Positions 12,043 through 57,663 of a stretch of 64,000 nucleotides of DNA are shown in pieces (the stretch's first letter is position 1; every line of letters begins with the position of its first letter). Source of the DNA: a virus (lineage: Duplodnaviria; Heunggongvirae; Uroviricota; Caudoviricetes). Position numbers and translations under genes: made by a program. The notes below the pieces were generated by a model. That model had not been told where the DNA came from. It ran no database searches and worked only from the letters and a program-made list of their open reading frames with translations. The DNA lies in the IMG/VR virus record IMGVR_UViG_3300015214_000024, positions 9,787-73,786 of that record. One strand, given 5' to 3'.

Positions 12043-12213
12043 ATGAGCAAAATTTCAAGATCACTAATTATCGGTGCTTGTATGATTGCACCTGGTGGTC
12101 TTATTGCTCTAACTGCATTGGCGGTCGTCGATAAAGAGACAAGAAAGAAACTCATCGATATGAAAGACCAAGCCATCAACTATTTGAAGGAACGTGGAAA
12201 TGACAAAGATTAA
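12043..12213 (+). CDS. small membrane protein (56 aa)
   Basis: GGAG RBS; single TM; below track cutoff. Confidence 0.45.
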   Translation: MSKISRSLIIGACMIAPGGLIALTALAVVDKETRKKLIDMKDQAINYLKERGNDKD

Positions 12214-17231: not shown

Positions 17232-17702
17232 ATGCTTATTCACGCTAAGGGTAATCTTCTCGCTATGGCCGCCGAAGGCCAATTTGATGTTATCGTCCAC
17301 GGCTGCAACTGTCAGGTTGATATGGGTGGCGGGATTGCTAAGCAAATTGCAGAGCAGTATCCGGAAGTGGCTGATTTGGATGCCAGCTTCAATGAAATGT
17401 TCGTCCACAAAGCTCTAATGCTTGGCAACATTGAATGGACTGATGTCGACGATGATGCTTTTACCATCGTCAACGGATATACCCAATTGATGGGCGGAAG
17501 TGGCACTTTCAGCTATGCTGCTCTGGAACTGGTGCTGATGAAAGTCGGAGCCGTATTTGCCGGTAAGCGCATTGGACTTCCTTACATCGGCTGTGGCATC
17601 GCCGGCGGGGACCAGAACAAAGTCGTTGACTTGTTCGAACTATTTGCTATAAAGGCTGCAAAGGACGGGACGAAAGTGACGCTCGTCGAATTTGCCCCGT
17701 AA
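17232..17702 (+). CDS. macro-domain (ADP-ribose binding/hydrolase)-like protein
   Basis: DVIVHGCNCQ..MGGGIAKQI and IGLPYIGCGIAGG resemble macro motifs. Confidence 0.5.
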   Translation: MLIHAKGNLLAMAAEGQFDVIVHGCNCQVDMGGGIAKQIAEQYPEVADLDASFNEMFVHKALMLGNIEWTDVDDDAFTIVNGYTQLMGGSGTFSYAALELVLMKVGAVFAGKRIGLPYIGCGIAGGDQNKVVDLFELFAIKAAKDGTKVTLVEFAP

Positions 17703-20694: not shown

Positions 20695-21537
20695 ATGAAA
20701 TTTGATCTTATGTCTGACCTTCACGTGGACCTTTCTCCGAGTTTTAGACTCGATTATGGTTCTATGGCAACTAGCCCTATTGCAATTGTTGCTGGTGATA
20801 CTTCAAACGATCCAGATACTACAATCTTCGAACTAGAACGAATCGCTTCCCATTATGAGCAAGTATTGTTCATTGACGGGAACCACGAACATTATGATAA
20901 TCGTGATGAGACTCGTCGCCGCTCAGACAGGATGCCTGAGTGGGTATATGCTTACCTGCATAGCAACTTTAGGGATCACCCTAATATCACGTATCTGGGC
21001 TCTGGAATCAAGCCTGTCATTATTGGCACTACCGCATTTGTTGGTGCTAATGGATGGTACGACTTTAATTGGTTGTCTACTCCTCAGGATTATTGCATCC
21101 AGAACTGGTACAGCAAAATGAATGATTCTTATTGGGCGAACATTGATCACGGCTGGGTCTTGAATGAGTGTACAAGGCTAACAAATAACATCGTGCAGAC
21201 AGTCGATCAACTAAACCAAGACCCAGCAATTAAAGATATTGTGTTGGTAACCCACACGATTCCTATTGAAGCTGGGGTTTATTATCACCCCACAGATCCG
21301 ACTTGGAATGCACTCAACGGGTGCTATTTGAACTCACAAATCAAAGCAGCACACAAAGGCAAAGTACGTGTCCATTGCTTTGGACACACTCACAGAAGGC
21401 AATTGTTCAACATCAATGGCATCGACTTTGCCTGCAACCCACGAGGCTATCAAGGCGAGCCTGGATTTGCCAGCTGGACTCCTATGGAGATAGATCTTGG
21501 GAGCTTTAAAGTTTCAGCTTTTGGAGAGATTGAATGA
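20695..21537 (+). CDS. calcineurin-like metallophosphoesterase
   Basis: GDTSND ... GNHEHYD motifs. Confidence 0.7.
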   Translation: MKFDLMSDLHVDLSPSFRLDYGSMATSPIAIVAGDTSNDPDTTIFELERIASHYEQVLFIDGNHEHYDNRDETRRRSDRMPEWVYAYLHSNFRDHPNITYLGSGIKPVIIGTTAFVGANGWYDFNWLSTPQDYCIQNWYSKMNDSYWANIDHGWVLNECTRLTNNIVQTVDQLNQDPAIKDIVLVTHTIPIEAGVYYHPTDPTWNALNGCYLNSQIKAAHKGKVRVHCFGHTHRRQLFNINGIDFACNPRGYQGEPGFASWTPMEIDLGSFKVSAFGEIE

Positions 21538-24217: not shown

Positions 24218-24892
24218 TTAGTCGTTATTGCTGAAAATACCCATAATGCGCAGGATATACAGGAACATATTGACAAAGTCCAGATAAAGCTCGAGAGCGC
24301 CGGAAATTGCCATCACGTCATCGCCGTAACCTTGATTATAAAGGTCCTTGATCTTCTGTGTATCATAAGCTGCAAGTCCGGCAAATAGCAACACGCCAGC
24401 AAAAGAAACAGCAAGTGTAAACACAGTGCTAACGATAAACATATTGAGGATCAAGAGACCAATCATACCAAACAGTGCAATGGTAAAGAAAGATCCAAGG
24501 CTGCTCATATCAATCTTAGTCGTATAACCAAATAGACTCGTACCAGCAAAGCCGACAGCAGTAGCAAAGAATGCCTGAGCGATCAGTCCCAGCTTGTATG
24601 TGAGAAAGATAGTAGACATACTGGCGCCCATTGCTGCCGCCAGAGCAAGAAACAGAGCGCCGTGGACCATTGGATCACGTGGCAAAAGCCACATACCCAA
24701 AAGTGCAGCAAATGGTGACAGGATGACAGCCCAAGTCATTACCGGCGATGCCAGCATCGCAACAGTAGCACCGCTGGTGAACATAGCCCAAGCAACGCCA
24801 CCAGTGAGAACGAGACCAAGTGTCATCCAATTGTAGACCTTGAGCATAAAGCTGCGCAAGCCTGAATCATAGGAAACAGTAGCAGTAGTCAT
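24218..24892 (-). CDS. Bax inhibitor-1/YccA family membrane protein
   Basis: 7-TM; C-terminal AAYDTQKI..LY..G.......ALELYLDF.N.F family signature. Confidence 0.7.
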   Translation of the reverse strand: MTTATVSYDSGLRSFMLKVYNWMTLGLVLTGGVAWAMFTSGATVAMLASPVMTWAVILSPFAALLGMWLLPRDPMVHGALFLALAAAMGASMSTIFLTYKLGLIAQAFFATAVGFAGTSLFGYTTKIDMSSLGSFFTIALFGMIGLLILNMFIVSTVFTLAVSFAGVLLFAGLAAYDTQKIKDLYNQGYGDDVMAISGALELYLDFVNMFLYILRIMGIFSNND

Positions 24893-24906
24893 TTTCAAAT
24901 TCCTCC

Positions 24907-25569
24907 TTAAAGGATAATTGTGCAGATAATCAGTGCAGAGATGCCAGTAGTAATAAGACCGCCAAGTGCGCCGCTCCACCAAATTTCATCGGCATCGCGG
25001 TATTGGTATTCTGTCACATACTTCTTATTCATTAGTCCAAACAACACAGGCTTGGTCTCGAATGCTTTCGGAGTGCGACGAAAAGTATTCCACACCTTAA
25101 AGAAAGCGAACCAAATCGTGATCACGAACGGAATGCCGATGACAATCCCGCCCAGCTTAGACCAGAAAAGATAAATGGTAATGAGGATGCCGGCTGGTGT
25201 GCGAAGGAAGTCATTGACTGCAATGCCTAGTTCCTTTGCAGTCTGCCCAATAGCCGACCCAAACTCCTTGGCAAGGCCTGCCCATTCCCTGACATTATCA
25301 GGACTCAAAGTCTCACCAACAGGGGCGGCTGCCTTGACTGAATCGCAGGCGCGGCGGACATTGATAATGTCCTGATCTGACATCTGGCTGATATCGAGAG
25401 CATTACAATTAAGTGATGCACCGTCTGGCCCTTTAACCATAGCGGTTGCAACCGTACCAACAGCAGCGCCAGCAGCAGCCGAAACAGCAGTAGATGTGTC
25501 ATCAGCAAAAGCTGGAGTGGTGATGGCCATAGCAGCAGCCAACATAGAAATCAGAGCAAACTTACGCAT
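24907..25569 (-). CDS. secreted/membrane-anchored protein (signal peptide + C-terminal TMs)
   Basis: MRKFALISMLAAAMAITTPAFA signal. Confidence 0.55.
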   Translation of the reverse strand: MRKFALISMLAAAMAITTPAFADDTSTAVSAAAGAAVGTVATAMVKGPDGASLNCNALDISQMSDQDIINVRRACDSVKAAAPVGETLSPDNVREWAGLAKEFGSAIGQTAKELGIAVNDFLRTPAGILITIYLFWSKLGGIVIGIPFVITIWFAFFKVWNTFRRTPKAFETKPVLFGLMNKKYVTEYQYRDADEIWWSGALGGLITTGISALIICTIIL

Positions 25570-31582: not shown

Positions 31583-32413
31583 TTACTTAATGTTGATGAA
31601 CGGGGTCGTTCCAGGACCAGCAATGACCTGCGGCACATCGCCGTTCCACTTCTTGATCGCTTCCTGCTGGAGGATCTCAGGATTGGTGCGGATAGCTTCA
31701 CCGCGGACTCGCATAGCTTCAGCCTCACCAGTTGCTTCTGCAACCTTCGATTCTGCTTCTGCCTTCGCCTTAGCGACGTTTGCCTGAGCAGCAAGAGCAG
31801 CCTGTTCGTTGGCGATCTTCTGGTTGATCTGAGCCTGCACCTGCTTCGGCATACGAATGTCCGACGCCCAATACAGTTCGTCAACTACCAGGCCTTGCTT
31901 GGCGAAGTATGCACGAACCCTCACCAGGGCCTTCGCGATCAGCTCAGCCTTACGAGGACCATAAATTTCCTCAACGCCCATCTGCGATGCTTCCTGCACA
32001 ATCGCATTGCGGATGTTATTGCGCATCGGGCCGGCGACCAAGCGATCCATTTCCATACGATATGTAGTGAACAGCTTTGGAGCCAGGGCAGGATCGACTC
32101 GATAGGCCACCGAAACATCAGCGCTCAGGCCGAGACCGTTCTTGTCCTGGAACGTGAATGCTTCGCTGTTCGGGCTCTGGTCAGTTGAATCAGCTGTCCA
32201 GGCGTAAGTGTTGGTGAAGGTCGGATATTCGTACATATTCACGCCTGGAGGGGTGAAGTACCAACCAACACCCTTGGCGACTTCGTCAACGCCACCGCCG
32301 AGGTTGCTGACCTTGATACCAACATAGCCCGGAGTGACTCGGGTAAAGCTGCACGAACCGACGAGCAGCACGATAAAAAGTGCAATAGCACCAAGAACAA
32401 ACTTAAAATTCAC
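31583..32413 (-). CDS. SPFH/band-7 (prohibitin/HflC-like) membrane protein
   Basis: N-terminal TM, SPFH core, C-terminal Ala/Glu-rich coiled coil. Confidence 0.65.
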   Translation of the reverse strand: MNFKFVLGAIALFIVLLVGSCSFTRVTPGYVGIKVSNLGGGVDEVAKGVGWYFTPPGVNMYEYPTFTNTYAWTADSTDQSPNSEAFTFQDKNGLGLSADVSVAYRVDPALAPKLFTTYRMEMDRLVAGPMRNNIRNAIVQEASQMGVEEIYGPRKAELIAKALVRVRAYFAKQGLVVDELYWASDIRMPKQVQAQINQKIANEQAALAAQANVAKAKAEAESKVAEATGEAEAMRVRGEAIRTNPEILQQEAIKKWNGDVPQVIAGPGTTPFINIK

Positions 32414-32416
32414 GTG

Positions 32417-32644
32417 TTAACCTTCCTTGGATTTGTCAGCAAAATCCTGGGCAATAACTTTAAGTGCAGGAGTGAGCCGACGGGCAGAGATATATGCAGT
32501 GACAGGGATGCTAATGATCCACATCAAAGCAAGCGGTACGAGGATCGATCCGTGACTGGAGAGCATCCCCATAATTGTAAATATTGCCACAGCGTGGTAC
32601 ACAACCACTACTGCCAGCAATATATAACTTCTAAGAAGAGACAT
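32417..32644 (-). CDS. small 2-TM membrane protein, SPFH partner candidate
   Basis: immediately upstream of SPFH gene, same strand. Confidence 0.5.
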   Translation of the reverse strand: MSLLRSYILLAVVVVYHAVAIFTIMGMLSSHGSILVPLALMWIISIPVTAYISARRLTPALKVIAQDFADKSKEG

Positions 32645-32795
32645 TAATTTTCCTTCGTCTTCAAATGTGACGTTGGCTTTATGATATCTTTCAATTTATG
32701 TCAATGGAAAAAGGGAAGAACTGAATAAGTTTTTAGAATCTGAAAACTTCCTAATGTGGTGGTGATTGGTCTCGAACTGCCAACCGATAAATAAG

Positions 32796-32870
32796 TGGTG
32801 CGGGGTGAGGGATTCGAACCCCCAACCTACCGGTTATGAGCCAGCTGCTCTACCGTTGAGCTAACCCCGC
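32796..32870 (-). tRNA. tRNA-Met (anticodon CAU; elongator or Ile-lysidine type)
   Basis: cloverleaf: GCGGGGT acceptor, D GCTC/GAGC, loop CUCAUAA, T-loop TTCGAAT, CCA encoded. Confidence 0.85.
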
Positions 32871-32904
32871 ATCGTATGTTTATTTATACTGGAAAACCTT
32901 AACA

Positions 32905-33351
32905 ATGTCAACGTGCCATCACCCAAATTGTGAAAAAGTTTTATCTGGCCATCAAAAGAAATATTGCTCTAAAAGTTGTGCTACAAAAATGAATAATACT
33001 GGGAAACGGCGACACGGAAAACCAGTCAACATTTGCCCAGTTTGTTTATCACCTACAAAAAGATCATCAAGCACTTATTGTTCAAACAAATGCCAAAATT
33101 CGGTAAGAAGAAAATCCGAAAAAGAATTATTATCAAATAATGCTGCTCGACAATCAACATACCGAGCGAAAGGCTACAGAGCCATTGCCCCCAATGCTGA
33201 TCGTGATTTAATTAAAGAAATATATAAAAACTGCCCTGAAGGATATGAAGTGGATCACATCACACCAGTATCAAAAGGTGGTTTACACCACCAAGATAAT
33301 CTTCAATATCTAACGATTAGTGGAAATCGTGCTAAAGGAAATCGAATTTAA
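32905..33351 (+). CDS. HNH endonuclease
   Basis: EVDHITPVSKGG..HH.DNLQ HNH motif; adjacent to tRNA. Confidence 0.7.
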   Translation: MSTCHHPNCEKVLSGHQKKYCSKSCATKMNNTGKRRHGKPVNICPVCLSPTKRSSSTYCSNKCQNSVRRKSEKELLSNNAARQSTYRAKGYRAIAPNADRDLIKEIYKNCPEGYEVDHITPVSKGGLHHQDNLQYLTISGNRAKGNRI

Positions 33352-33629
33352 CGTCTTGTTGCGACTTTTTCAGTAAATTTGGTTTTTTGTATGCGTAGTA
33401 TTTCTGCGGTAATTGCTTTAAGCTCTTGGATTGTATTTTCCAAGTCGCTAGTTTTATCACACAATTCGTCAAACTTCTTATCGCATTTTTTCACAGATTC
33501 ATTCCTTTTAGGAATATCGATGTTTCTATTTATTATTTTTTTAAGCGATATACTCTTCCAGCGCCAGCATTTTAAGTTGAACACGATCCAGATCGTGCTG
33601 ACACGCATTACGCTCACGAAGCTCAGCAT
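33348..33629 (-). CDS. hypothetical coiled-coil protein; start uncertain (overlaps 3' end of HNH gene)
   Basis: ORF only. Confidence 0.3.
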   Translation of the reverse strand: MLSFVSVMRVSTIWIVFNLKCWRWKSISLKKIINRNIDIPKRNESVKKCDKKFDELCDKTSDLENTIQELKAITAEILRIQKTKFTEKVATRR

Positions 33630-34005
33630 ACCAAAGAGCCATCTTATAATATTTATTGATCAAAACTTGGCGACATTTGTACCGACGAGTAGACGGATCA
33701 TAGCCTAGCTTTTCATTAACTCTCTCGAGCATCTCGATCTCGAAATCAGTCGGCAAACGTTCGCCTTTATCCTGATTGCAGTCATAATGACTGAGTAGTA
33801 GATTACCAGCATTGACTTGATACAAATGAAGAGGATAGACGTGATCAACCGTGACATCGTTTGATACAAGTCGTTCTCTGCAAATCGGACAGGTATGATC
33901 CTGCGCTTTAAGCATCAAAGGAACACCAACATTGGCTACAATCAATCGAGCCTGGTGCCGAAGCTTCCTATACTTTGCTTGGTTTATCTTTGCCATAGCA
34001 CACAA
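33541..34005 (-). CDS. HNH endonuclease
   Basis: CPICRERL...VDHVYPL...NLLLSHYDCNQDKG. Confidence 0.65.
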   Translation of the reverse strand: MCAMAKINQAKYRKLRHQARLIVANVGVPLMLKAQDHTCPICRERLVSNDVTVDHVYPLHLYQVNAGNLLLSHYDCNQDKGERLPTDFEIEMLERVNEKLGYDPSTRRYKCRQVLINKYYKMALWYAELRERNACQHDLDRVQLKMLALEEYIA

Positions 34006-34041
34006 CTATGGCAAAGATATAAGTCAGTCAAGTCCTACTTT

Positions 34042-34551
34042 TCAATATCCTTTAGAAAAATAGTCATCAATCAACTCTTGGACCATCTCAACCATTCGGA
34101 TATCTCCGTCGCGCAAAACCTCCAAGAGATCACGCTTCTCACGGAAATAAACTTTGGCGAAATTCGGATCGCTGACCCGAATATCCTTCAAGTTATCGTA
34201 AGAATCAATCAGCTTAACTGTCTTAATAACAGTCGGTGCCTGAGCGATATGGTTCTTATCGATCAGCTTTCGGGCTTTGCGATTTCCATCTTCCGGCTTG
34301 GATTGGTCACTCAGCCACCACACACCTTGAGATGCATCGTTGCCGAACAAGACTGACAAAAGCTCAAACGGAACATCTTGATCCTCGTGACTGTCGTGCA
34401 AATATGCTGCAATAACAGCCCACTCTGTAAGTCCCAGCCACATAGCCATATCGCCCACAGCCTCAGTGTGAGTCGTATATGCCTTACCAGTGAACTTACG
34501 AACCTGGTCGCGGTGGACATAACGTCCAAACAGGATAGCATTTTGAATCAT
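34042..34551 (-). CDS. HD-domain phosphohydrolase resembling SpoT/RelA (p)ppGpp hydrolase domain (small alarmone hydrolase-like)
   Basis: RYVHRDQ...H...LHDSHEDQD HD motifs. Confidence 0.55.
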   Translation of the reverse strand: MIQNAILFGRYVHRDQVRKFTGKAYTTHTEAVGDMAMWLGLTEWAVIAAYLHDSHEDQDVPFELLSVLFGNDASQGVWWLSDQSKPEDGNRKARKLIDKNHIAQAPTVIKTVKLIDSYDNLKDIRVSDPNFAKVYFREKRDLLEVLRDGDIRMVEMVQELIDDYFSKGY

Positions 34552-34581
34552 ACCTCCTATTAGGACATTTCCAGGACAGTG

Positions 34582-34773
34582 TCAACCCGGAATGAAGAAA
34601 CTTACCTCGACTTGAATTATGTTACCATTGCTGGCAAAACGATTCGTCTTTGCACCGCGGTACGTTTTGAATGTGCGAGCAGATTCAATGTGCCGAGTCA
34701 TTCGACCGCGGCGATGACAGGTGACATACCCTTGTGGGGTTTTAATCACATACCGGGTGTAAGTTTCATTCAT
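34582..34773 (-). CDS. hypothetical basic protein (63 aa)
   Basis: GGAG RBS. Confidence 0.35.
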   Translation of the reverse strand: MNETYTRYVIKTPQGYVTCHRRGRMTRHIESARTFKTYRGAKTNRFASNGNIIQVEVSFFIPG

Positions 34774-34782
34774 TCTCCAGCC

Positions 34783-35058
34783 TCAATAACTAGTGTGTGA
34801 TACTCGCTCAGAAATAAAGAGCTCAGTATCATCAACAATGCCTTCATCGTTCAAAAGATGAAGTTCGTCCGGACAATCACGGATCGAAGCTGCCTCGACT
34901 TCAAAAGTGACCATAACTTCTGACGGCTCAATAACATCCATCTCGATGAATTCCATATCAGTATTTTCATACTCAGACAGATATGCTTCCAGGTCTGACA
35001 GATCAATATCACTGTCGTCGCGAGTCTTGACTGAGAAGGTAAGTTCAAAAGTTTTCAT
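34783..35058 (-). CDS. hypothetical acidic protein (91 aa)
   Basis: ORF, coupled. Confidence 0.45.
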   Translation of the reverse strand: MKTFELTFSVKTRDDSDIDLSDLEAYLSEYENTDMEFIEMDVIEPSEVMVTFEVEAASIRDCPDELHLLNDEGIVDDTELFISERVSHTSY

Positions 35059-35488
35059 AAGTCTCCTGTATATGCTTTAAATTTGGAATCTGGTCGCTTG
35101 GCCAACAAGGCTCAAGGGTGAAATCAATTACTTCTTGGGGGGTTCTCAGTCGTGCTACAATGTCCTCCCAAAAATATTCTTTAGCCCTACGCCGGCTCAT
35201 TACAATAACATCAGGTATGTATTTGTCACTACCATATCGAAATTGAGTTGCGGTAACATCAATAACGTGGTGTTGAGTCATCACAAATGCGTGTTGGCCA
35301 CCAGGAATTTTTGAGATAGCCACATACGCATTGATTGATTCTTCCTGGAGGCGATGGAGAATGTAAGTAGATGCCCAAGCGCAAGCCCCACAAAAGTCTT
35401 TACCAAAATTACTACGACTGAGATTTCTTTCAATCCAACTACGCCCCTTCATCGCAGCAATGTTGACTTTTGAACGCACCTCTGACAC
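35045..35488 (-). CDS. hypothetical protein (147 aa)
   Basis: ORF. Confidence 0.5.
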   Translation of the reverse strand: MSEVRSKVNIAAMKGRSWIERNLSRSNFGKDFCGACAWASTYILHRLQEESINAYVAISKIPGGQHAFVMTQHHVIDVTATQFRYGSDKYIPDVIVMSRRRAKEYFWEDIVARLRTPQEVIDFTLEPCWPSDQIPNLKHIQETYENF

Positions 35489-35780
35489 TTTTCATCCTCG
35501 CTAAAGAACGTTGAAACCATACCAAATCGGATTTGTGGTACATAAGCAAATGTTTGGAAACTGTCAACGCCAAGTTAATGTTTTTCTGAACTTTTGACAC
35601 AGTTTCATCATCAAAGACTGTTAGAAATTCGTCAGCCATCTGAGCAACTGGTTCCCTGTTCACACAGCATTTGAACACAAACGAGTCTGGATCAATTTTC
35701 ATATCCCACGTGATGAGAATGGGCATATCCTGACGAAGGATATTGTAGAACAGGGGTCGGTTGATAGTCTTACTAATCAT
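35439..35780 (-). CDS. hypothetical protein (113 aa)
   Basis: ATGA coupling with upstream gene. Confidence 0.45.
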   Translation of the reverse strand: MISKTINRPLFYNILRQDMPILITWDMKIDPDSFVFKCCVNREPVAQMADEFLTVFDDETVSKVQKNINLALTVSKHLLMYHKSDLVWFQRSLARMKSVRGAFKSQHCCDEGA

Positions 35781-36160
35781 TTCAGGATATGGAAAAGAAC
35801 AGCGCCGCTATCAATTGCGTCATTCACAGTCTTTTCATCCATTACTGCACTGTCTTCGAACCAGTGTTCCGTTGCACCAGTTTCTTCAGAAGTCCAAGAT
35901 GCATTATTAGTTACTTCAAATGGGCCGTAGAAATTGATTATTGACCCAGAATCATACGCACTGATGGGAGTTTCTTTTTTATAACGTTCCCTCAATCCAT
36001 AGCAGTAGGCCAGCAATTCTTCTTTAGTATCTCGGGTGATGACTTCAGTCTCATTAAATTCATTGACAGAATGATAGCGCGAGTCTGAGTTCTCACGAAC
36101 ATTAACCAGCACAGTAATCATCATCCAAGATGTTGTGCGAGTCACGCAAACTGTGACCAA
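35777..36160 (-). CDS. hypothetical protein (127 aa)
   Basis: ORF. Confidence 0.5.
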   Translation of the reverse strand: MVTVCVTRTTSWMMITVLVNVRENSDSRYHSVNEFNETEVITRDTKEELLAYCYGLRERYKKETPISAYDSGSIINFYGPFEVTNNASWTSEETGATEHWFEDSAVMDEKTVNDAIDSGAVLFHILK

Positions 36161-36408
36161 TTTTCGTCAATGTATGATTTGATATCATAGGGAGTGACTA
36201 CGTGGCGTTCGATCGGATTGCGAGGATAGCCCATCAATTCGCTGGTAGTGATCTCAATAGATTTGCGAATATCTTTGATAATCACAACAAACCCATCAGT
36301 CATCCAGAACAGTTCTCGGCCATTGACTTCAATAGACCTGTATCCTTTGGGCTTTTTCATCCGGTTCAGGTTAGGATCATCACCACGAACTTTACGACGT
36401 TTTTCCAT
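36142..36408 (-). CDS. hypothetical protein (88 aa)
   Basis: ORF. Confidence 0.45.
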   Translation of the reverse strand: MEKRRKVRGDDPNLNRMKKPKGYRSIEVNGRELFWMTDGFVVIIKDIRKSIEITTSELMGYPRNPIERHVVTPYDIKSYIDENWSQFA

Positions 36409-36409
36409 T

Positions 36410-36760
36410 TCACTTCCTTATATAAGTTGGCTTCGGTGAAGTCGGTTTCACATATTCCCACTTACCTAAAAGGCCAGGAACACTTGCTACTTTTTTCTCC
36501 ACATATGGCGCCGCCAACAAGTCATATTCACCATTAGCACCATATCGGTTCGGATTCAACCAAAAAGCTGATGGATTTTCAAGATATAGTTCTTTTTCTC
36601 GTTGATCATCAGCAGCCGTCCAGAGATCAGGTAGTGCTGGAGTTGGGGAGGATTTAAGCTCTGTCTCTAAAGTGTCCGCAATATTGAGCAATGGCAACAA
36701 ATAGGATAAAGCGAGAGATCCTATAACCACTGCGGTGAATATAAAAACGAACGTAAGCAC
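36410..36760 (-). CDS. hypothetical protein with N-terminal TM/signal (116 aa)
   Basis: hydrophobic N-terminus. Confidence 0.5.
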   Translation of the reverse strand: MLTFVFIFTAVVIGSLALSYLLPLLNIADTLETELKSSPTPALPDLWTAADDQREKELYLENPSAFWLNPNRYGANGEYDLLAAPYVEKKVASVPGLLGKWEYVKPTSPKPTYIRK

Positions 36761-36866
36761 AAGATCCTCATAAAAAAGGACATTTTCATCAACCCCTCCC
36801 TCCTTGAGGGGTCAGCGACCTGTATGTCCAAACGCAAACTTGATTTATTATATTTGGATCACCGTG

Positions 36867-37415
36867 TCAAGCACAAATCGTCATAGCCATCTTTTGATCT
36901 TCAGATAGTGTTTGGTGGAATGACGAGGGCATAACTGGACCTATACCAGCCATAATGATTTTGTAAATCAATTCGTCGTCATATTTGATCAAAGTCGACA
37001 CTCGTTCAAAATACAGCATCTCACTTTGGATCTTGTAAGCAACCATATCTGGATCGTGTGACCAATTTGTCAAGAATTGCTCAAGAGCCCACCGAGCAAC
37101 TACAGGACATTGAAGAATCCTGGATCCAAGAAAATGAGATGAGCTTAAATTATATTCGTGAATCAAATCCAAAGGAGGGAAACGGCAATAGAGGATAGGG
37201 TTAGTGTCCAAAGGACGTAATGCGCTCCTGGTGCCGTTCACGGTGCGATGTTCCCAGCACTCCAAGGCGTGCTTGAGCAGGTGGCGGTGCTCATTATCCT
37301 TGTAGATGGCAAGCATATATGGATGTAGTTCAACATCCTTCAGTTTTTCACGCATACCAACCATTAGAATATTCCCGCCTTCTGTAACATACTGTTCCAC
37401 TGATCTTCGACCCAT
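36867..37415 (-). CDS. hypothetical protein (182 aa)
   Basis: ORF. Confidence 0.5.
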   Translation of the reverse strand: MGRRSVEQYVTEGGNILMVGMREKLKDVELHPYMLAIYKDNEHRHLLKHALECWEHRTVNGTRSALRPLDTNPILYCRFPPLDLIHEYNLSSSHFLGSRILQCPVVARWALEQFLTNWSHDPDMVAYKIQSEMLYFERVSTLIKYDDELIYKIIMAGIGPVMPSSFHQTLSEDQKMAMTICA

Positions 37416-37696
37416 TTCTGGATTTCAGTGTAGTCACCAAGCATAGCTGCGGTGCCGATTCGTTTATATGCGACAGGATTGCCAAGATATGTGGCAAAGT
37501 TTTTGCGGGTTTTAATCACAGCAGACGTGGCAGAAAGTTCATTGAAGTGGCGATCACCGCCTTCATCGTAAAAGAATGATGCATTGATCCACCCAATACG
37601 AAAATCTTTGACCCAAGCTTCAAAGATCAGAGTTTCATAAAGGGCGCGATCGCCCTTTTGGGTCTTAGCAGGTAACGCCTTCCAATGAATCTTCAC
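37364..37696 (-). CDS. hypothetical protein (110 aa)
   Basis: ORF. Confidence 0.45.
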   Translation of the reverse strand: MKIHWKALPAKTQKGDRALYETLIFEAWVKDFRIGWINASFFYDEGGDRHFNELSATSAVIKTRKNFATYLGNPVAYKRIGTAAMLGDYTEIQKWVEDQWNSMLQKAGIF

Positions 37697-37714
37697 TGCT
37701 ACGTTTTCCTAAAT

Positions 37715-37797
37715 TGGTGCCCCTGGCCGGACTCGAACCAGCACTCCGAAGAATTCGATTTTGAGTCGAACGCGTCTACCAATTTCACCACAGGGGC
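37715..37797 (-). tRNA. tRNA-Leu (anticodon CAA), long variable arm
   Basis: acceptor GCCCCTG/CAGGGGC, anticodon arm TTCGA-CUCAAAA-TCGAA, T-loop TTCGAGT, CCA encoded. Confidence 0.8.
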
Positions 37798-37840
37798 TCT
37801 GTGTCTGTTGTCCCCATATTAGTTGAACAGGGAGCATCAG

Positions 37841-38566
37841 TCAACCAAATTCTTTAAGCGTTTCCTCAATGTATTCAAGGGCATTGACTCGTTGCTTTTG
37901 TGAACGGCGAGTCATAAAATCAACCATATCGCCAGTATATTCCAATCCATATGCCGCAGAGAACGCTTCATCGCTTTCATAGCGATCACGCTGTTTGTAC
38001 ATATCAGCCAAATACTGTGCATCTTTTTGAGGCTTGTCTGAAGGGTAAGCGCCCCAATATCGGTTACTGTCCGGGGACAAAAACCAATCACGGCATTTAC
38101 CATAATACCAAACAGCAGCGTTAACCCACTCGTCTCCAGCAACCTTGCGAAAATTTGGAAACCAAATGGCTGAGTATTGCTTTTGGAAATTTGGATACGG
38201 TGTCCATCGGCAATAGCTACATTCCATCCAATGTTTGACTTCCGGATGCTCGTCGCGTTCCCAATCGCCAACAGTAATAGATTCACCTTCCCCAATGGGG
38301 AAATCGCCAATCATTCTGACCTCAAGGTAGCCATAATAGGCCTGCTCGCCATTACAGAATCGAATGGCCCGCTCTCGATCAAATTGGTGAGCTTTGAGTT
38401 CAGCTGCCAGTTCATCTTCATCCCGGATGCCATTACCAATGACATTGAAGAACTGGTCATAGACCCGAAGCTTCGCTTCATCAAAAGTCTTGGCCGAATA
38501 CAATGAAGGATATTGATCCACACGGGCCAACACCATTTCCTCAGGTGTAAAAATCTTCCTTGCCAT
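37841..38566 (-). CDS. hypothetical protein (241 aa)
   Basis: TGATG coupling with upstream small ORF. Confidence 0.6.
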   Translation of the reverse strand: MARKIFTPEEMVLARVDQYPSLYSAKTFDEAKLRVYDQFFNVIGNGIRDEDELAAELKAHQFDRERAIRFCNGEQAYYGYLEVRMIGDFPIGEGESITVGDWERDEHPEVKHWMECSYCRWTPYPNFQKQYSAIWFPNFRKVAGDEWVNAAVWYYGKCRDWFLSPDSNRYWGAYPSDKPQKDAQYLADMYKQRDRYESDEAFSAAYGLEYTGDMVDFMTRRSQKQRVNALEYIEETLKEFG

Positions 38567-39885: not shown

Positions 39886-40452
39886 CTATCTTTTCTTTTT
39901 TTGCTTCTTATCCAAAATGCGAGCCATACGGGCATTTCGATATTCTTTCAGGTGAGTAACTTCTTCACCCAGCCAGAATGGAATTCGTATAAACCGATCA
40001 GGCTTATCGAGCTCAATCTCAGCTAATGCCAGGCCTTTAAACTCTGGATTAAGGAACTCATCAACTTCCCAAGCGAATCGTCGCTCTTCACCATATGTGA
40101 TGCGATGACGATTTTTAATCAATGCCGGAGTGGTAAGAGTGCGGTCTTTGGCCAAAAACTTGAAAGACTTTTTATCAATCTTTTCTTCAAGCTCAATTGA
40201 AGTGCGATCATCAATCCGCTTCTTCATAGTCTGATAATAATGGTAAACTTCTTCACCATTGAGCCACTCTTTGATCTGGCGCACACGGATTGCCCAATCA
40301 CCAGTCTTTTTTAGATAGTGTTGAGTTATTTCCGTTGTGATCCAGATCTCACCGTGCTGGCCATCATAAAGGTCGCTGTTAGTATTGGTCGCCTGTATCA
40401 GGTAATCAATATCAACGTTGACCTTAAATTTGCGTTCGATTTCGTGACTCAT
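39886..40452 (-). CDS. CYTH (CyaB/thiamine triphosphatase-like triphosphate tunnel) domain protein
   Basis: N-terminal HEIERKFKV (ExExK) signature. Confidence 0.6.
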   Translation of the reverse strand: MSHEIERKFKVNVDIDYLIQATNTNSDLYDGQHGEIWITTEITQHYLKKTGDWAIRVRQIKEWLNGEEVYHYYQTMKKRIDDRTSIELEEKIDKKSFKFLAKDRTLTTPALIKNRHRITYGEERRFAWEVDEFLNPEFKGLALAEIELDKPDRFIRIPFWLGEEVTHLKEYRNARMARILDKKQKKKR

Positions 40453-40817
40453 CTTGTAATCTTCCACCAAATCCGACCCGGGGCCATCCAAAGTTCAGCC
40501 ACCACAACCAATACAAGCCAAGTTACAGACCCGGCTGCAATTGACATAAGAATGCAGTAGAACGGATTGATCATAAAGCCCGCAATGCCATAAGAGAAAA
40601 CAATCCCTAATAGCCAAAAGACCACACAGGCCCCATAAAGTGTAAACACTCTAACGAAAAACTTAATCAGGATGGCAGCACCGAAGATATAAACGAATGC
40701 CATCAACCAGGAGGGGTCAAAGTTATCCAGTTCCTCCCAATGGATTTGTGGGATAGGATCAGCCTGCGACACTGTCGCGTGATGCTGTTCAACCCGGGGT
40801 ATCTGATATTCAGTCAT
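40449..40817 (-). CDS. membrane protein (3-4 TM), 122 aa
   Basis: ATGA coupling to CYTH gene. Confidence 0.5.
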   Translation of the reverse strand: MTEYQIPRVEQHHATVSQADPIPQIHWEELDNFDPSWLMAFVYIFGAAILIKFFVRVFTLYGACVVFWLLGIVFSYGIAGFMINPFYCILMSIAAGSVTWLVLVVVAELWMAPGRIWWKITR

Positions 40818-41799: not shown

Positions 41800-42990
41800 T
41801 TACTGAAGTTCAGTCGTTTCACCCTTGCGTGTCAGATAATCAGGTGATACCATCTTAAGCATCTTGCGGCCAATGAAGCCAGTATCAGCATTGTCGTCAT
41901 CACGGATGACAATACCTTCCTTGAGAGTCTTACCGTCAATTGACGACTTGCCATCACGCAGTGTGATCAGGTCAGCATCACCATATCGGCCCTTGAACAG
42001 TAGCGGAACCGTTTCAACACCCAAGCTCTTGGTGACTTTTTCAAAATTCCGATATGAATCAACCTCGCCGTCAGACACTGTATCAAATGCCAGGAACTTC
42101 GGCGGAGTGCTGTAGCCAAGATCCTGAATGCCTTGGCCAAAAGTTTCGCCAAGAATCAGGAATGCTGATTCGTTTTCAGTCTCACCATACAGGTTAGCAA
42201 GCTGCTCAGAGGTTCGCGAATCAAGGAACGTCTTGAGCGACCTCATATAGAGATTCTTGGCCAAGTTCGTTTCGTTGGCCCTGAAGCAGAGCCCCTTAGA
42301 ACCAAGGCCCTTACTATATGCAGTAGCATACAAGGTGCCTTCCTCAGTCACAACTTCCAAGAAATCTTCACGCTTTTCAGTCGTAAAGATGAAACCGGTA
42401 AAAGTGCCGTGAAGCTTTTCAGTAATATTCACAATGTCGTCAGGGAAGAAGACATTTTCGAACTTCTGAGCATTTTCAATGTCGAACTTGTAGATGAGAT
42501 CATACGAATGACTGAACACTTCACCACCCATACTGGCTGGAATAGGCGGCTCATACTTCGTGATGCCAAGCTGTTCAGCAACGTCCCAGCCGATGCCCAC
42601 CTTGTGGATTTCGCCATCAGCCATACGCATCCACTTGCGGTAATGCGTACCAGTTTCTTCGTTAGTGATGCCACAGCAGGGATAGATAACACCCTGGCTC
42701 AAGATGCCGCGCAGCCGCATTGCCTTGATACGATCGCCGTTAGATCCGTTAAGACGGCCTTTGCCCTTCTCATCGTCCCAAAAATCCAACTCCTTGAGGA
42801 GCCATTCAGGAAGCACTGAGCCTTCCGGGATATATGCAACAGGATCACCATCCTTATAGCGATGGCTCCCATCTTCCAGCTTCGCGCTAATACACGTAAA
42901 GCCGTTGATATCAAGAAGGCTTAGCCTGTCAGCATTCGGATGATCACGAACGTTCTTGACCTGCTCAACCAGCACTTCAAACTTAGACAT
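41800..42990 (-). CDS. RNA ligase (Rnl2/PF09414 family) fused to N-terminal tRNA-binding (EMAP/Myf-like) domain
   Basis: N-term VEQVKNVRDHPNADRLSLLDI...MRLRGILSQG; ligase motifs I EKLHGT, III LILGETFG, IV EGIVIR, V KMLKMV. Confidence 0.7.
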   Translation of the reverse strand: MSKFEVLVEQVKNVRDHPNADRLSLLDINGFTCISAKLEDGSHRYKDGDPVAYIPEGSVLPEWLLKELDFWDDEKGKGRLNGSNGDRIKAMRLRGILSQGVIYPCCGITNEETGTHYRKWMRMADGEIHKVGIGWDVAEQLGITKYEPPIPASMGGEVFSHSYDLIYKFDIENAQKFENVFFPDDIVNITEKLHGTFTGFIFTTEKREDFLEVVTEEGTLYATAYSKGLGSKGLCFRANETNLAKNLYMRSLKTFLDSRTSEQLANLYGETENESAFLILGETFGQGIQDLGYSTPPKFLAFDTVSDGEVDSYRNFEKVTKSLGVETVPLLFKGRYGDADLITLRDGKSSIDGKTLKEGIVIRDDDNADTGFIGRKMLKMVSPDYLTRKGETTELQ

Positions 42991-44142: not shown

Positions 44143-44513
44143 TTTACAGTTCCTGCCTTTTAGTTTTATTTATTTTCACAAGATATAGTAAAAAACAGCC
44201 GATTTAAACACAATCAGTAGATTATCTACTACATTTAGTAGTATGACACTACATCTATGTACTACATATAGTAGTGGCTCAAATAATTAAAATTCTTGCA
44301 TTTTTCACGTATCGATACATAGGATTTTTGACATTTTTTACCACATACTATATGTTGTGGTGAATAGTGCTGATTCAACACGATATAGCACAAGATATAG
44401 TAGCTAGATCTAGTTTTTGGCTTATTTCAATTTTTTTTCGTCATATTAGAAAAATCTGTTGACTCGTTCCGGCATTCATATAGAAGGGCTTGGTAATCCA
44501 AGAAGGAATCAAA

Positions 44514-45686
44514 ATGTTCAAGTTTGTCCACATTTACCACCTCGACGACGTGCGTCACGCGATCTCGGAAGACTTCTTCCTGGCAGAGCGCGATTGGGGA
44601 TATGTGATCAACTATCACATCAACGCTTTTCCGGAAATCAAGGACGAGATGAGCGACGAGGAAAAGGCGCTTGAATATGCTCGTCGTGAATTCCGCGGCA
44701 TCAAGTTTGCCAAGGATGGTACGCTGCTGGCTCGTCCGTTCCACAAGTTTTTCAACTGGGGTGAGAAGGAAGCTGAGATGGCTCAGTTCGACTTCGATAT
44801 GCCTTTCGTGATTATGGACAAGCTGGATGGTTCGATGATCCATCCGATGTTGGTGGATAACAAGATCGTGTGGTGCTCCAAGATGGGCCCGACGGATGTT
44901 GCCCTACAGGCCGAAGCGTTTGTGGGAACCCATCCGGAATATGTGGAGTTTGTGCTGGCTGCTATGGGCGGCGGCTATACTCCGATTTTTGAATGGTGCT
45001 CGCGTAAGCAGCGCATTGTGGTCGACTATCCGGAAGATGCACTGATCCTGACTGCCATCCGCGACAACCGGACTGGCGAATATGTGGGTATGCCGTCAAT
45101 GAAAGCGAAGGCTGAGCATTACGGTATCCCGGTGGTGAAGACCTGGAATGGCACCTTCAACGGCATCACGGACTTTATGGAAGCCGTTGGTGGTGAAGAG
45201 CAGTGTGAGGGTTATATCATCCGGTTCGAGAATGGCCATATGGTCAAGCTCAAGAACGCCTGGTACTTGAATCTGCACCGTGCCAAGGATCAGCTGAGCA
45301 ACGAAAAGAATGTCTACCGTCTAGTGCTCAGCGAGCATCACGATGACCTCTTGCCGCAGTTGGATCCGGATACCCGCAAGGCTCTGGAAAACTTTGCTTC
45401 TGACCTGAGCAACGCTGTGAAGGTACAAGCTGCTACGCTGGCCAACGCTGTGGCTGAGAATTGGAAGCTCTACAGCAACCGCCGTGATTTTGCTCTCAAC
45501 TTTGGTAGCAAACAGGAACTCTCCGCCGTGGTCTTCAAGATCCTGGATGGTAAGGATTCCTACGAAGCTCTTGTTGATTGGCTGCTGGCTCAGACGTCGA
45601 CTCAAGCCAAGCTGGATGCTGCTAAGAAGAAGTTCGGTCAGCTCAACTGGTCGGAATATTATTACGCGGTGGATATGGATGGCTAA
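44514..45686 (+). CDS. rnlA: RNA ligase 1 (T4 RnlA-like)
   Basis: collinear similarity to T4 Rnl1: FRGIKFA, PFHKFFNWGE, motif I IMDKLDGSM, DNRTGEY, EGYIIRFENGHMVKLKNAWY. Confidence 0.8.
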   Translation: MFKFVHIYHLDDVRHAISEDFFLAERDWGYVINYHINAFPEIKDEMSDEEKALEYARREFRGIKFAKDGTLLARPFHKFFNWGEKEAEMAQFDFDMPFVIMDKLDGSMIHPMLVDNKIVWCSKMGPTDVALQAEAFVGTHPEYVEFVLAAMGGGYTPIFEWCSRKQRIVVDYPEDALILTAIRDNRTGEYVGMPSMKAKAEHYGIPVVKTWNGTFNGITDFMEAVGGEEQCEGYIIRFENGHMVKLKNAWYLNLHRAKDQLSNEKNVYRLVLSEHHDDLLPQLDPDTRKALENFASDLSNAVKVQAATLANAVAENWKLYSNRRDFALNFGSKQELSAVVFKILDGKDSYEALVDWLLAQTSTQAKLDAAKKKFGQLNWSEYYYAVDMDG

Positions 45687-53041: not shown

Positions 53042-55354
53042 ATGAAGATTGAAGAAGCAGGCGTTGAGACTTTCTCGCTTGGTCAGAAGGAAGTTTCCGT
53101 TGCCAAGATCCAAGCAAGTGCCAAAGCGTTTGAGATCCTGAGCTCAAGCCTTTATTCCAACAACATTCTCGCAATCATCCGTGAGCTTTCTGCAAATGCG
53201 AAGGACTCGCACAAGGCTGCTGGCTGCCCTGAGAAGCCGTTTGACATTCAGCTGCCCAATAAGCTGGACCCTAGCTTCAAGGTTCGTGACTACGGTGTAG
53301 GTATGGATCATCAATTCGTGATGACTCGCCTGAACACTTACTTCGATTCTACCAAGAACGACAGTAATGAAGAAATCGGCGGCTTCGGTCTCGGCATCAA
53401 GTCAGGCTTCAGCTATACTTCCAGCTATATGATCGTCACATTCGACGGCACGACACGCCGTGTCTACGCTTTCCAGATCGGCGCCAGCGGACTTCCTGAG
53501 ATCAGCTTCCTGGCTGAAACTCCGTCGACTGAGCCTCGCGGTGTTGAGCTCAGCATTCCGGTTATGGACAAGGACTATGACCGCTTCCGCGAAGAAGCTA
53601 TCGAAGCTCTGACGTTCTACGAACCCAAGCCCAACATCAGCGGCGTTGATGCTTCCGCGTTCGACATTAAGCCTTTGTTCCAAGGCACTGGCTGGAAGAT
53701 TTACCAGAATCCTGGCCGCCTCAAGAATGAAAACTATGTCGAGATGGGCAATGTGATCTATCCGGTCATTGAAGAAAACAATCCTTACGACGAATCTCGC
53801 CACTACCGCCACCATCGCCGCGGCCGCGGCGCAGATATGATTATGGTCTATAGCGCCGGCATTGGTGAGATTGACATCACTCCGAACCGCGAGCAGATCA
53901 AGCTGACCGATCGATCCAAGGCCCGAATCACCAAGTTTGAAGAAACGGTAACTGAAGAATTGATGGCCACTATCCAAGGCTGGCTGGATAAGGAAACTGG
54001 TACGCTTTGGGAAGTCCTGCGCGGCGATACGGTGCGCCGTATCCACGACCAGTCCTACTTCTTCGAGAGCCGCAAGGTTGATCTGAAGAAGCTCAAGTAT
54101 AAGGGCTATCAGATTATGGTCGGCGAGTTCCGTTATACTGAAAAGAGCCCGGCTGCTGACAAGGTGGTAAAAGGTCACACCTTGCAAGAGCAGTATGGCG
54201 AGATTCGTATGGATGAGCATCGGATGGCTCATTATGGCATCCAAATCTCAGCCCGGCATTCGGAAAGCGTTGGTATCATTATTGGCACTCCTGGTTGGAC
54301 GGCGAAACTGAACCAAGCCGGCGCTCGTAAGTTGATCAATCAGACAAAGAAGGTGCTTTATCTGCTCGACGTCAAGGCTGCTGATCAGGCCGATGTTATT
54401 GCCGGTCTCAATAAAACCTTCCCGGACTTTGCTGATAACATTTACAATTGGGATGATTTCAAAGCTGGGATCAAGGCAGCCAAGCCGGAAAATGACTACT
54501 ATACTTATGACCTGAAGGATGGTAACTCACGTTATTATAATGAAGGTAATAAGAAGGAGTTCAATATCAAGGACTTCAGCAAGAAGAAGACCATTTATTA
54601 TGGCACGTATAAGCCTAAGGCAAATAACCTTAGGAATTACCATTACAACCGCGAGTCGACGCGAATTCAGGAAATCTTGAGTAGCTGTTATGACGAGACC
54701 TATGATGAGATCCTGGCCAAGCTGAACGGCGAGAAGGTTGTATATGCTTTCCTTGAATCCCAGGTCAAGGAACTGGAAGCTGCAGGATTCAAGCTGGTGG
54801 ACTTTGTTACCACTTTCGAAGAACTGCTCCATCAGGTCGCCGTTGAATTTGCTGCTGAACGTCCTACAATGACGCTGAAGGAATACCTGAAGCCGTTGCA
54901 GGAAAAGAACCCTGAGATTAGCATCTCCACGTTCTACAAGGCAGTGAAGCGTTGGGCCCGCGAATGCGGTATGGAGGACGAGTATCAGCTTCTCCTCAAG
55001 CTGAACGACCCGTCATCATCCTCTTACCGTGCCTCGGCTAATGACCAGCTGTTCCGCCAGGTTCACAAGATGACCATCAAGGAATATGTGAAGAAGCACA
55101 ACCTCAAGCCGGCCAAGCCGACCAGTAACCAGTTCGCGATCGACCTCCGTGACAAGGCCCCGCTGCTCAGCTACTTGATCACTCGCTATAGCGTCCCTGA
55201 TGTTATTGATTATGTGAAGAAGGAAGTGGCTGGTATTGTGAAGGCTCCTGCTCCGGCTGCTACCGTGAAGGCTCCGCCAAAGCGTAAGCCTAGGCCGCAA
55301 CCGGTGGTGATTCAGACCATCAACCCGTTGTCGCTTATCCCGACAGCACAGTAA
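53042..55354 (+). CDS. rIIA: rIIA-like protein (GHKL ATPase N-domain), paralog 1 (770 aa)
   Basis: collinear with T4 rIIA: ASAKAFEILSSSLYSN, IRELSANAKDS (N-box), VRDYGVGM (G1), IGGFGLGIKS (G2). Confidence 0.8.
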   Translation: MKIEEAGVETFSLGQKEVSVAKIQASAKAFEILSSSLYSNNILAIIRELSANAKDSHKAAGCPEKPFDIQLPNKLDPSFKVRDYGVGMDHQFVMTRLNTYFDSTKNDSNEEIGGFGLGIKSGFSYTSSYMIVTFDGTTRRVYAFQIGASGLPEISFLAETPSTEPRGVELSIPVMDKDYDRFREEAIEALTFYEPKPNISGVDASAFDIKPLFQGTGWKIYQNPGRLKNENYVEMGNVIYPVIEENNPYDESRHYRHHRRGRGADMIMVYSAGIGEIDITPNREQIKLTDRSKARITKFEETVTEELMATIQGWLDKETGTLWEVLRGDTVRRIHDQSYFFESRKVDLKKLKYKGYQIMVGEFRYTEKSPAADKVVKGHTLQEQYGEIRMDEHRMAHYGIQISARHSESVGIIIGTPGWTAKLNQAGARKLINQTKKVLYLLDVKAADQADVIAGLNKTFPDFADNIYNWDDFKAGIKAAKPENDYYTYDLKDGNSRYYNEGNKKEFNIKDFSKKKTIYYGTYKPKANNLRNYHYNRESTRIQEILSSCYDETYDEILAKLNGEKVVYAFLESQVKELEAAGFKLVDFVTTFEELLHQVAVEFAAERPTMTLKEYLKPLQEKNPEISISTFYKAVKRWARECGMEDEYQLLLKLNDPSSSSYRASANDQLFRQVHKMTIKEYVKKHNLKPAKPTSNQFAIDLRDKAPLLSYLITRYSVPDVIDYVKKEVAGIVKAPAPAATVKAPPKRKPRPQPVVIQTINPLSLIPTAQ

Positions 55355-55433
55355 AAATAGTTCAATTTAAGGCTTGCAATTGGTGCCCCGTCCTGTATAA
55401 GGGCGGGGTAAACCATTCAACAAGGGATTAGAA

Positions 55434-57608: not shown

Positions 57609-57663
57609 TTGACGCATTAAACAAAATGCCGTATTACGGTAGCACCAACTAAGGAGGTTTTGA

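Follow-up and report, generated by a model that had tools for sequence, protein, structure and literature searches.

A probable stand-alone small alarmone hydrolase encoded by a very large uncultured phage

The DNA analysed here is a 64,000-nucleotide window (positions 9,787 to 73,786) of the IMG/VR virus record IMGVR_UViG_3300015214_000024, and its minus strand carries a gene that we assign to the stand-alone small alarmone hydrolases (SAHs), here a protein with a RelA/SpoT-homologue (RSH) hydrolase domain only. The original prediction had put a 169-aa protein at 34042-34551, and exactly such an open reading frame (ORF) lies there, reading on the minus strand from an ATG at 34551-34549 to a TGA stop at 34044-34042. 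The gene and its main codon blocks are as follows.

34042-34551, minus strand: coding sequence of the SAH (ORF list, PHROG 990, PDB matches, AlphaFold2 model, dN/dS)
34381-34401, minus strand: codons L51-H52-D53-S54-H55-E56-D57, with the metal-binding His-Asp of motif HD3 and the catalytic Glu-Asp of HD4 (sequence, invariant columns)
34267-34290, minus strand: codons D88-G89-N90-R91-K92-A93-R94-K95, the signature (PE)DGNRxxRK (column counts in alignment A1, below)
34192-34206, minus strand: codons D116-S117-Y118-D119-N120, with the metal-binding Asp of HD5, Ser in place of the usual Lys/Arg, and the Asn of HD6 (D116 and N120 invariant)

Gene, family and catalytic motifs

The gene is real and under purifying selection. 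Its best PHROG match is PHROG 990 ("metal-dependent phosphohydrolase", E = 1.7e-24), 99 homologues were retrieved from an index of 5.8 billion proteins, and 5465 cluster representatives pass E <= 1e-3 in an exhaustive search. The ratio of nonsynonymous to synonymous substitution rates (dN/dS) is ~0.12 relative to an orthologue of 65% identity; for an 84%-identical one, dN is 0.118 and synonymous sites are apparently saturated, the NG86 estimate not being computable. Selection this strong argues against a relic. An identical protein is found in GenBank as MCK9530935.1, "MAG: hypothetical protein [Gammaproteobacteria bacterium]", where MAG stands for metagenome-assembled genome, and also on the ENA contig ERZ27247376 k141_1276970 (465,559 bp) and on a Logan SRR6484323 contig (152,714 bp). 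When 33000-36000 was searched with megablast against 50,697 phage records, no match appeared; with no close DNA relative among them, comparisons were made at the protein level.

Searches by sequence, profile and structure converge on the RSH hydrolases. The best NCBIfam match is TIGR00691 spoT_relA (5.9e-8), covering only positions 3-128 of the 687-position model, which are its hydrolase part. In phmmer searches of the PDB, Drosophila Mesh1 (3.4e-10) and the Leptospira SAH 7qoe (5.8e-10) were found together with Rel/RelA hydrolase domains, and the matches at E <= 0.07 are exclusively Mesh1, SAH, Rel, SpoT or Aph1. A family profile built from an alignment of 59 homologues (A1) has 23 PDB matches, RSH hydrolases without exception (Mesh1 best at 6.7e-26, Lmo0812, Rel, SpoT, RelH, PaSAH, Aph1). 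The AlphaFold2 model built on the same alignment has ten helices (pLDDT 97, pTM 0.92), and every one of the 50 PDB matches listed by Foldseek is an RSH hydrolase (SAHs, Mesh1, Rel, SpoT), with TM scores of 0.85-0.87 for Mesh1 (root-mean-square deviation 2.1-2.4 A) and 0.80-0.84 for bacterial SAHs. Many phage proteins in the viral structure library BFVD also resemble the model (TM up to 0.95).

These results argue strongly that the protein is an RSH-type hydrolase, and PHROG, NCBIfam, the PDB profile matches and Foldseek thus agree with the original call of a RelA/SpoT (p)ppGpp hydrolase-type domain. The absence of an attached synthetase domain was also correctly anticipated: the protein is a single-domain, stop-bounded ORF with no synthetase, TGS or ACT domain, and its spoT_relA match is confined to the N-terminal hydrolase part. 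The proposed check against PF13328 had a divided outcome. For the single sequence, HD_4 (PF13328) is the best Pfam match but stays below the gathering cut-off (E = 3.4e-4, 20.8 bits against 27.2), whereas 96/99 homologues do carry PF13328.

That sub-threshold score, along with a weak match to the generic HD model PF01966 (1.7e-3), could be taken to favour a different HD family (dNTP triphosphohydrolase, HD-GYP/cyclic-nucleotide phosphodiesterase, 5'-nucleotidase) or an inactive relic. We regard this as scarcely credible: no HD protein from outside the RSH group occurs among the 23 PDB profile matches or the 50 listed PDB fold matches, a dATP triphosphohydrolase appears in BFVD only at E = 0.18 and TM 0.46, residues specific to RSH beyond the bare H..HD..D are present (Arg of HD1, Glu-Asp of HD4, Asn of HD6), and strong purifying selection runs counter to a relic. 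The dNTPase and cyclic-phosphodiesterase families and the pseudogene were therefore rejected on PDB profile and fold matches, RSH motifs and dN/dS. The outcome that had been named as fatal to the original prediction, assignment to some other HD family in the absence of SAH residues, did not occur; all six HD motifs are there.

The six motifs of RSH hydrolases, HD1-HD6, were defined by Bisiak et al. (PMC9293644). Mn2+ is bound by the His of HD2, the His-Asp of HD3 and the Asp of HD5, the Glu-Asp of HD4 serves nucleophilic attack, the Arg of HD1 stacks on the base and the Asn of HD6 touches it (PMC9293644). The corresponding residues here are R18 (HD1), H28 (HD2), H52-D53 (HD3), E56-D57 (HD4), D116 (HD5) and N120 (HD6), and all eight are invariant in 59/59 homologues. 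The H...HD...D arrangement with typical flanking residues that had been read from the sequence is therefore borne out, H28, H52-D53 and D116 being accompanied by R18, E56-D57 and N120. A second alignment (A2) joins the SAH with PaSpo of Salmonella phage SSU5, the Pseudomonas phage D6 homologue, fly and human Mesh1, RelH of Leptospira levettii (RelH_Ll), Lmo0812 and Mycobacterium tuberculosis Rel; its invariant columns are Q16, R18, Y25, H28, V32, A48, L51, H52, D53, E56, D57, F69, G70, V77, D116 and N120.

Two further features distinguish this family from the reference enzymes. Residue 117, directly after the HD5 Asp, is Ser here and L/S/I in the family, with Leu in most members including the functional SSU5 PaSpo. 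Within the (PE)DGNRxxRK signature, G89, N90, R91, R94 and K95 are invariant in A1, and nothing in Mesh1, Lmo0812, RelH_Ll or Rel corresponds to its DGN when they are aligned; the motif is common to SSU5 PaSpo and phage D6 but is not conserved in the reference enzymes.

The residue at HD1 also bears on specificity. An Asp at this position gives Aph1 its (p)ppApp specificity (Ahmad et al., PMC10083569); HD1 of the SAH is the family-invariant Arg18, as in enzymes that are promiscuous or can act on (p)ppGpp. Aph1, from a Bacteroides caccae prophage (7smg), is likewise an RSH-type HD hydrolase of a phage element, but its profile match is weak (2.4e-10) and covers the first 84 residues; it has Asp at HD1, Arg119 as specificity residue and two helices fewer, forms a tetramer and is encoded beside its toxin. 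The SAH, in contrast, keeps Arg at HD1, is modelled with all ten helices and lacks a toxin neighbour. An Aph1-type (p)ppApp-specific hydrolase was rejected on the HD1 Arg, the complete ten-helix model and the partial, weak match to 7smg.

Surroundings, missing partner and upstream element

The gene content of the window is that of a phage: two tandem rIIA genes followed by rIIB (53042-59184), Rnl1- and Rnl2-type RNA ligases, a SleB-type endolysin-like hydrolase, a dCMP deaminase, HNH homing endonucleases and long arrays of small ORFs without family. The source is probably an uncultured phage of lytic type and very large size whose sequence was placed in a bacterial MAG. The SAH protein lies on the 465-kb contig and is listed in GenBank under a Gammaproteobacteria MAG, for which the alternatives are a mis-binned huge phage and a chimeric assembly.

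The SAH gene stands within a head-to-tail minus-strand block of small genes, which match no PHROG, Pfam or PADLOC family. Its segment had been described as rich in tRNA and HNH genes, and two of each do lie near it.

32796-32870, minus strand: tRNA-Met (ARAGORN, Rfam-confirmed)
32905-33351, plus strand: HNH endonuclease gene
33541-34005, minus strand: HNH endonuclease gene
37715-37797, minus strand: tRNA-Leu (ARAGORN, Rfam-confirmed)

Among relatives that are syntenic in other respects, some have the HNH genes next to the SAH, some lack them and some have other genes in their place. This fits mobile homing endonucleases that have inserted close to tRNA genes, in between conserved genes. PADLOC, run on the SAH and nine neighbours, reported nothing for the SAH, a generic HNH similarity only for the downstream endonuclease and no defence-system context. 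Relatives whose SAHs are 64-84% identical have the same series of genes (147 aa, 91 aa, 62-66 aa, then the SAH), while downstream genes vary. These upstream genes (147, 91 and 63 aa) are conserved only inside the same phage lineage. Distant homologues of the SAH (~40-45% identity) have unrelated surroundings, for example the small-gene arrays of other phages, or, in a Balneolaceae MAG, an adjoining MiaB-like gene. A two-gene system was thus rejected: no partner is conserved beyond the lineage, and the neighbours of distant homologues differ.

One of these neighbours, the 147-aa protein at 35045-35488 (minus strand), two genes upstream of the SAH, has 10 homologues, all from its own lineage. 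Invariant C33-G-A-C36, H66 and D77 suggest a papain- or NlpC/P60-like Cys-His-Asp enzyme. One of five AlphaFold2 models is confident (pLDDT 82; the others 46-54), and its best PDB fold match, at E = 0.065, is to NlpC/P60-type peptidases.

No alarmone synthetase accompanies the hydrolase. A Pfam scan of the 109 ORFs of the window, with two complete family lists (16 and 18 families), found PF04607 (RelA_SpoT synthetase) in 0/109; nor does PF04607 occur in the gene calls up to 10 kb either side of the SAH on its own contig, or in the neighbourhoods of the SAH relatives examined. The SAH is an orphan without an adjacent toxin. The synthetase search covered 64 kb of a ~465-kb genome, and SAHs do act as antitoxins or immunity proteins in FaRel operons (PMC7229694) and in MuF-toxin prophages (PMC10083569), which leaves room for the SAH to counteract, as ATfaRel and Aph1 do for their toxins, a toxic alarmone synthetase whose gene lies in another part of the phage genome; it would then be a type IV antitoxin or an immunity protein. 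We consider such a role very improbable: known SAH antitoxins adjoin their toxins, no PF04607 was found in the window, within 10 kb or beside the relatives examined, and HD1 is Arg, unlike the Asp of Aph1.

Two overlapping elements precede the gene.

34552-34558, minus strand: AGGAGGT, Shine-Dalgarno-like, directly 5' of the ATG, with 1 nt between GGAGG and ATG
34557-34585, minus strand: promoter-like non-coding element, with TTGACA (34585-34580), a 17-nt spacer and TAATAG (34562-34557), found in an alignment of seven relatives

In that alignment, whose proteins are 64-84% identical to the SAH, TTGACA and TGTnCTA are invariant and the stop codon of the upstream gene shifts; the promoter-like element ends ~5 nt before the ATG of the SAH. 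The Shine-Dalgarno-like AGGAGGT is not conserved, the seven aligned relatives being without a Shine-Dalgarno. The spacer TAACGCCCAACGTGTTC is itself conserved in six of the seven, which is unusual for a plain sigma-70 promoter. The window has a single TTGACA-N17-TAnAnn where chance predicts 0.3, a statistically weak excess, and the -10-like box is non-canonical, its usual final T missing in all seven relatives. A generic sigma-70 and terminator scan of 32400-38000 returned 7 promoter-like sites against 12.7 in shuffled sequence, and none at the start of the SAH. The element may be a promoter with a perfect -35 box; if so, the transcript would begin no more than a few nucleotides from the AUG. 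Absence of a Shine-Dalgarno in the relatives hints at a leaderless or regulated transcript.

Tested relatives, substrates and proposed role

With tblastn, 129 phage records match the SAH, among them that of Salmonella phage SSU5 (gene SSU5_099). The product of this gene, SSU5 PaSpo (AFL47026), is the closest tested relative, with 37% identity over 151 aa (E = 1e-27). Both proteins are phage-encoded and stand alone with no adjoining synthetase, both have PHROG 990 as best and PHROG 32047 as second match, and they share identical HD1-HD6 residues, a non-basic residue after the HD5 Asp, the PEDGNR...R signature and a C-terminal block DPxF..Y..EK. They differ in a C-terminal extension of ~45 aa, present in the 213-aa SSU5 PaSpo and missing from the 169-aa SAH, and in their genomes, SSU5 being a 103-kb Salmonella phage and the SAH gene lying in a far larger uncultured phage. 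A place for the SAH in the PaSpo subfamily is suggested by SSU5 PaSpo being its best characterised homologue and by the PHROG and the PEDGNR motif that they have in common.

Experimental evidence on phage SAHs comes from neutralisation of toxic alarmone synthetases (toxSAS). In E. coli, SSU5 PaSpo counteracted every one of the five validated toxSAS, and so did the SAH of phage PVP-SE1, a PbcSpo protein (Jimmy et al. 2020, PNAS, PMC7229694); for SSU5 PaSpo these are FaRel, FaRel2, PhRel, PhRel2 and CapRel (PMC7229694), and later studies used it to detoxify CapRel, PhRel2 and FaRel2 (PMC9712102, PMC11245113, bioRxiv 10.1101/2021.04.30.441581). Of SSU5 PaSpo and our SAH, the former alone has such experimental support. 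Jimmy et al. proposed that incoming phages bypass alarmone-mediated defence through alarmone hydrolases of their own (PMC7229694). That a phage SAH might blunt the stringent response or degrade nucleotides used in defence is thus a hypothesis already in print, and it has been tested for the SSU5 homologue (PMC7229694, PMC11245113); in the papers found, this anti-alarmone role was addressed by co-expression in E. coli, not during infection.

Other single-domain hydrolases are more distant. Mesh1 (Drosophila CG11900, 3nqw; human HDDC3, 3nr1/5vxa) is the best match among solved structures, has a single domain of similar length and shares the six catalytic motifs, although identity in the full-length structural alignment is 23-25%. 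It is a metazoan protein with NADPH phosphatase as its proposed main activity, and it has Lys after the HD5 Asp, no DGN insertion and a longer loop after HD1, whose extra residue the SAH lacks. RelH of L. levettii (7qoe) and of Corynebacterium glutamicum (7qod) and PaSAH of Pseudomonas aeruginosa (6yvc) are (p)ppGpp/(p)ppApp hydrolases with the SAH fold (TM 0.80-0.84) and the same metal-binding and catalytic residues, and 'SVEDQ' of RelH_Ll resembles 'SHEDQ' of the SAH; their identity to it is 19-27%, they are chromosomal and serve housekeeping or self-protection, and PaSAH has Leu at HD1 where the SAH keeps Arg. ATfaRel (PbcSpo), the type IV antitoxin of Cellulomonas marina FaRel, and the PVP-SE1 SAH are single-domain enzymes that neutralise toxSAS by degrading the product. 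The PVP-SE1 SAH is, as here, a stand-alone phage gene (it is not in the first 50 kb of the PVP-SE1 genome), but the published classification sets both proteins apart in another SAH subfamily, and ATfaRel shares an operon with its toxin whereas our SAH is an orphan.

We infer the metal, the substrates, the timing of expression and the benefit to the phage as follows. The protein would be an all-helical HD domain that holds one Mn2+ through H28, H52, D53 and D116, with E56/D57 activating the attacking water, R18 stacking on the purine base with N120 alongside, and K19, R94, K95, K113 and the family-specific R91 probably holding the 5' phosphates. It would cleave the 3'-pyrophosphate off (p)ppGpp/(p)ppApp, giving GDP/GTP or ADP/ATP and PPi, and might also remove 3'-pyrophosphate from the CCA ends of tRNA. 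The conserved residues and the example of SSU5 PaSpo point to a Mn2+-dependent 3'-pyrophosphohydrolase, and activity on 3'-pyrophosphorylated purine nucleotides is quite probable. Expressed from the small-gene block, the SAH would keep alarmones low in the infected cell, and the stringent response and toxSAS-type abortive infection would then be unable to stop translation, transcription and nucleotide synthesis. It would work alone: no synthetase is paired with it, and beyond its own lineage no neighbouring gene is conserved. Removing alarmones would be worthwhile for the phage because the stringent response restricts infection and phages evolve to suppress it; the T7 portal protein does so (2026 preprint, bioRxiv 10.64898/2026.01.27.700999). 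Taken whole, the reading of an active stand-alone SAH that keeps alarmones low during infection is likely; that alarmone removal during infection is the function under selection is favoured by somewhat less, at slightly better than even.

Several points weigh against this reading. Besides the sub-threshold Pfam score, the nearest tested protein is 37% identical and was tested by heterologous co-expression; the Lys/Arg that follows the HD5 Asp in Mesh1 and Rel is replaced by Ser117, at a position where SSU5 PaSpo tolerates a non-basic residue; and the upstream element is no more than promoter-like. SAHs are, moreover, promiscuous, and for this reason the relevant substrate is not readable from sequence: XccSAH also hydrolyses NADPH (PMC9765508), and MESH1 and ATfaRel remove the toxin-added 3'-pyrophosphate from tRNA CCA ends, restoring aminoacylation of FaRel2-modified tRNA in vitro (bioRxiv 10.1101/2021.04.30.441581).

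This last activity suggests that the same enzyme could have RNA as its selected substrate, stripping the 3'-pyrophosphate added by CapRel/PhRel/FaRel2-type toxins from the CCA end of tRNA, restoring aminoacylation and defeating abortive infection, as part of a tRNA-protection toolkit with the phage tRNAs and three RNA ligases. Neutralisation of four tRNA-targeting toxSAS by SSU5 PaSpo (PMC7229694) agrees with this, as do CapRel, a proven anti-phage system (PMC9712102), and the two tRNA genes and three RNA-ligase-family genes of the window. The papers found contain no biochemical demonstration of tRNA de-pyrophosphorylation by a PaSpo-type enzyme, however, and no sequence feature of the SAH marks an RNA-binding surface. 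The SAH does not adjoin the ligases, the nearest being 7 kb off, and their co-occurrence with it and the tRNAs is anecdotal, coming from one genome lineage. An RNA substrate, which overlaps with alarmone removal as an explanation, is possible but doubtful.

Candidate genes of an RNA-repair toolkit are the following.

6194-6772: AlkB-like 2OG-Fe(II) oxygenase
14868-15548, plus strand; 41800-42990, minus strand; 44490-45686, plus strand: RNA-ligase-family genes, two of them PF09414 (Rnl2-like) and one PF09511 (Rnl1/gp63-like)
20695-21537: calcineurin-type metallophosphoesterase

One of the two PF09414 ligases also has a PHA02142 OB domain. The ligases, the AlkB-like oxygenase and the metallophosphoesterase may form an RNA-repair toolkit, and no Pnk was seen in scans of the window. 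One speculative extension is that the PEDGNR clade of phage SAHs are not primarily alarmone scavengers but RNA 3'-end healing enzymes that strip 3'-pyrophosphate, perhaps 3'-phosphate, from damaged tRNA and, with the three RNA ligases, the AlkB-like oxygenase and the phage tRNAs, form a repair and counter-defence suite replacing the Pnk 3'-phosphatase of T4-type repair; the invariant DGNR would then be an RNA-binding surface. We judge this unlikely.

Promiscuity also raises the case of a mainly NADPH 2'-phosphatase, Mesh1-like, or of an enzyme acting on another 2'/3'-phosphorylated cofactor, which would re-balance NADPH/NADH. Among solved structures, fly and human Mesh1 come closest, human MESH1 (5vxa) is an NADPH phosphatase, and the bacterial orphan XccSAH dephosphorylates NADPH and affects NADH pools (PMC9765508). 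By kcat/Km, however, XccSAH prefers alarmones ~1000-fold (PMC9765508), identity to Mesh1 is low (above), and the closest characterised relative neutralises toxSAS. Such a cofactor role is improbable, and alarmone removal by a stand-alone SAH remains our preferred explanation.

Other window features and significance

Further features of the window lie away from the SAH gene.

5495-5572, plus strand: tRNA call with anticodon CTA (amber suppressor, labelled tRNA-Pyl; ARAGORN), directly after an HNH gene at 4725-5492
12194-12964, plus strand: Sel1-repeat and SPOR-domain protein, host-interaction candidate
17232-17702, plus strand: weak Macro-domain match (22.9 bits), host-interaction candidate
24218-24982, minus strand: Bax1-I family membrane protein (6.6e-52), host-interaction candidate
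31583-32413, minus strand: Band_7/SPFH lipoprotein, host-interaction candidate
39886-40491, minus strand: CYTH (triphosphate tunnel) protein, host-interaction candidate
53042-55354 and 55434-57608, plus strand: tandem rIIA paralogues of 770 and 724 aa (both PHROG 612, ~1e-107 to 1e-114)
57664-59184, plus strand: rIIB, after the rIIA pair

The CTA tRNA call has no Rfam match at the gathering score and a sub-threshold tRNA-Sec match (30.8 bits, E = 2e-4); either an unusual suppressor tRNA or a spurious call could account for it. Of the stop codons in the window, TAG is used least (9/109 ORFs). The duplication of a full-length rIIA looked unusual.

Stand-alone phage SAHs are already known: they have been described, classified and partly tested, their family is very large, and they are now annotated as routine in phage genome papers. 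Other phages would serve better than an uncultured one for testing which substrate matters in infection, and the SAH adds breadth to the family (5465 cluster representatives, DGNR, HD1 Arg) and no new question. With it, the GenBank "hypothetical protein" MCK9530935.1 gains a confident SAH assignment. Phage SAHs are a published candidate escape route from restriction by the stringent response and from toxSAS such as CapRel. What is new is the SAH as a conserved, syntenic gene under purifying selection across a lineage of very large uncultured phages, along with its invariant signature DGNR and the element conserved upstream of it.

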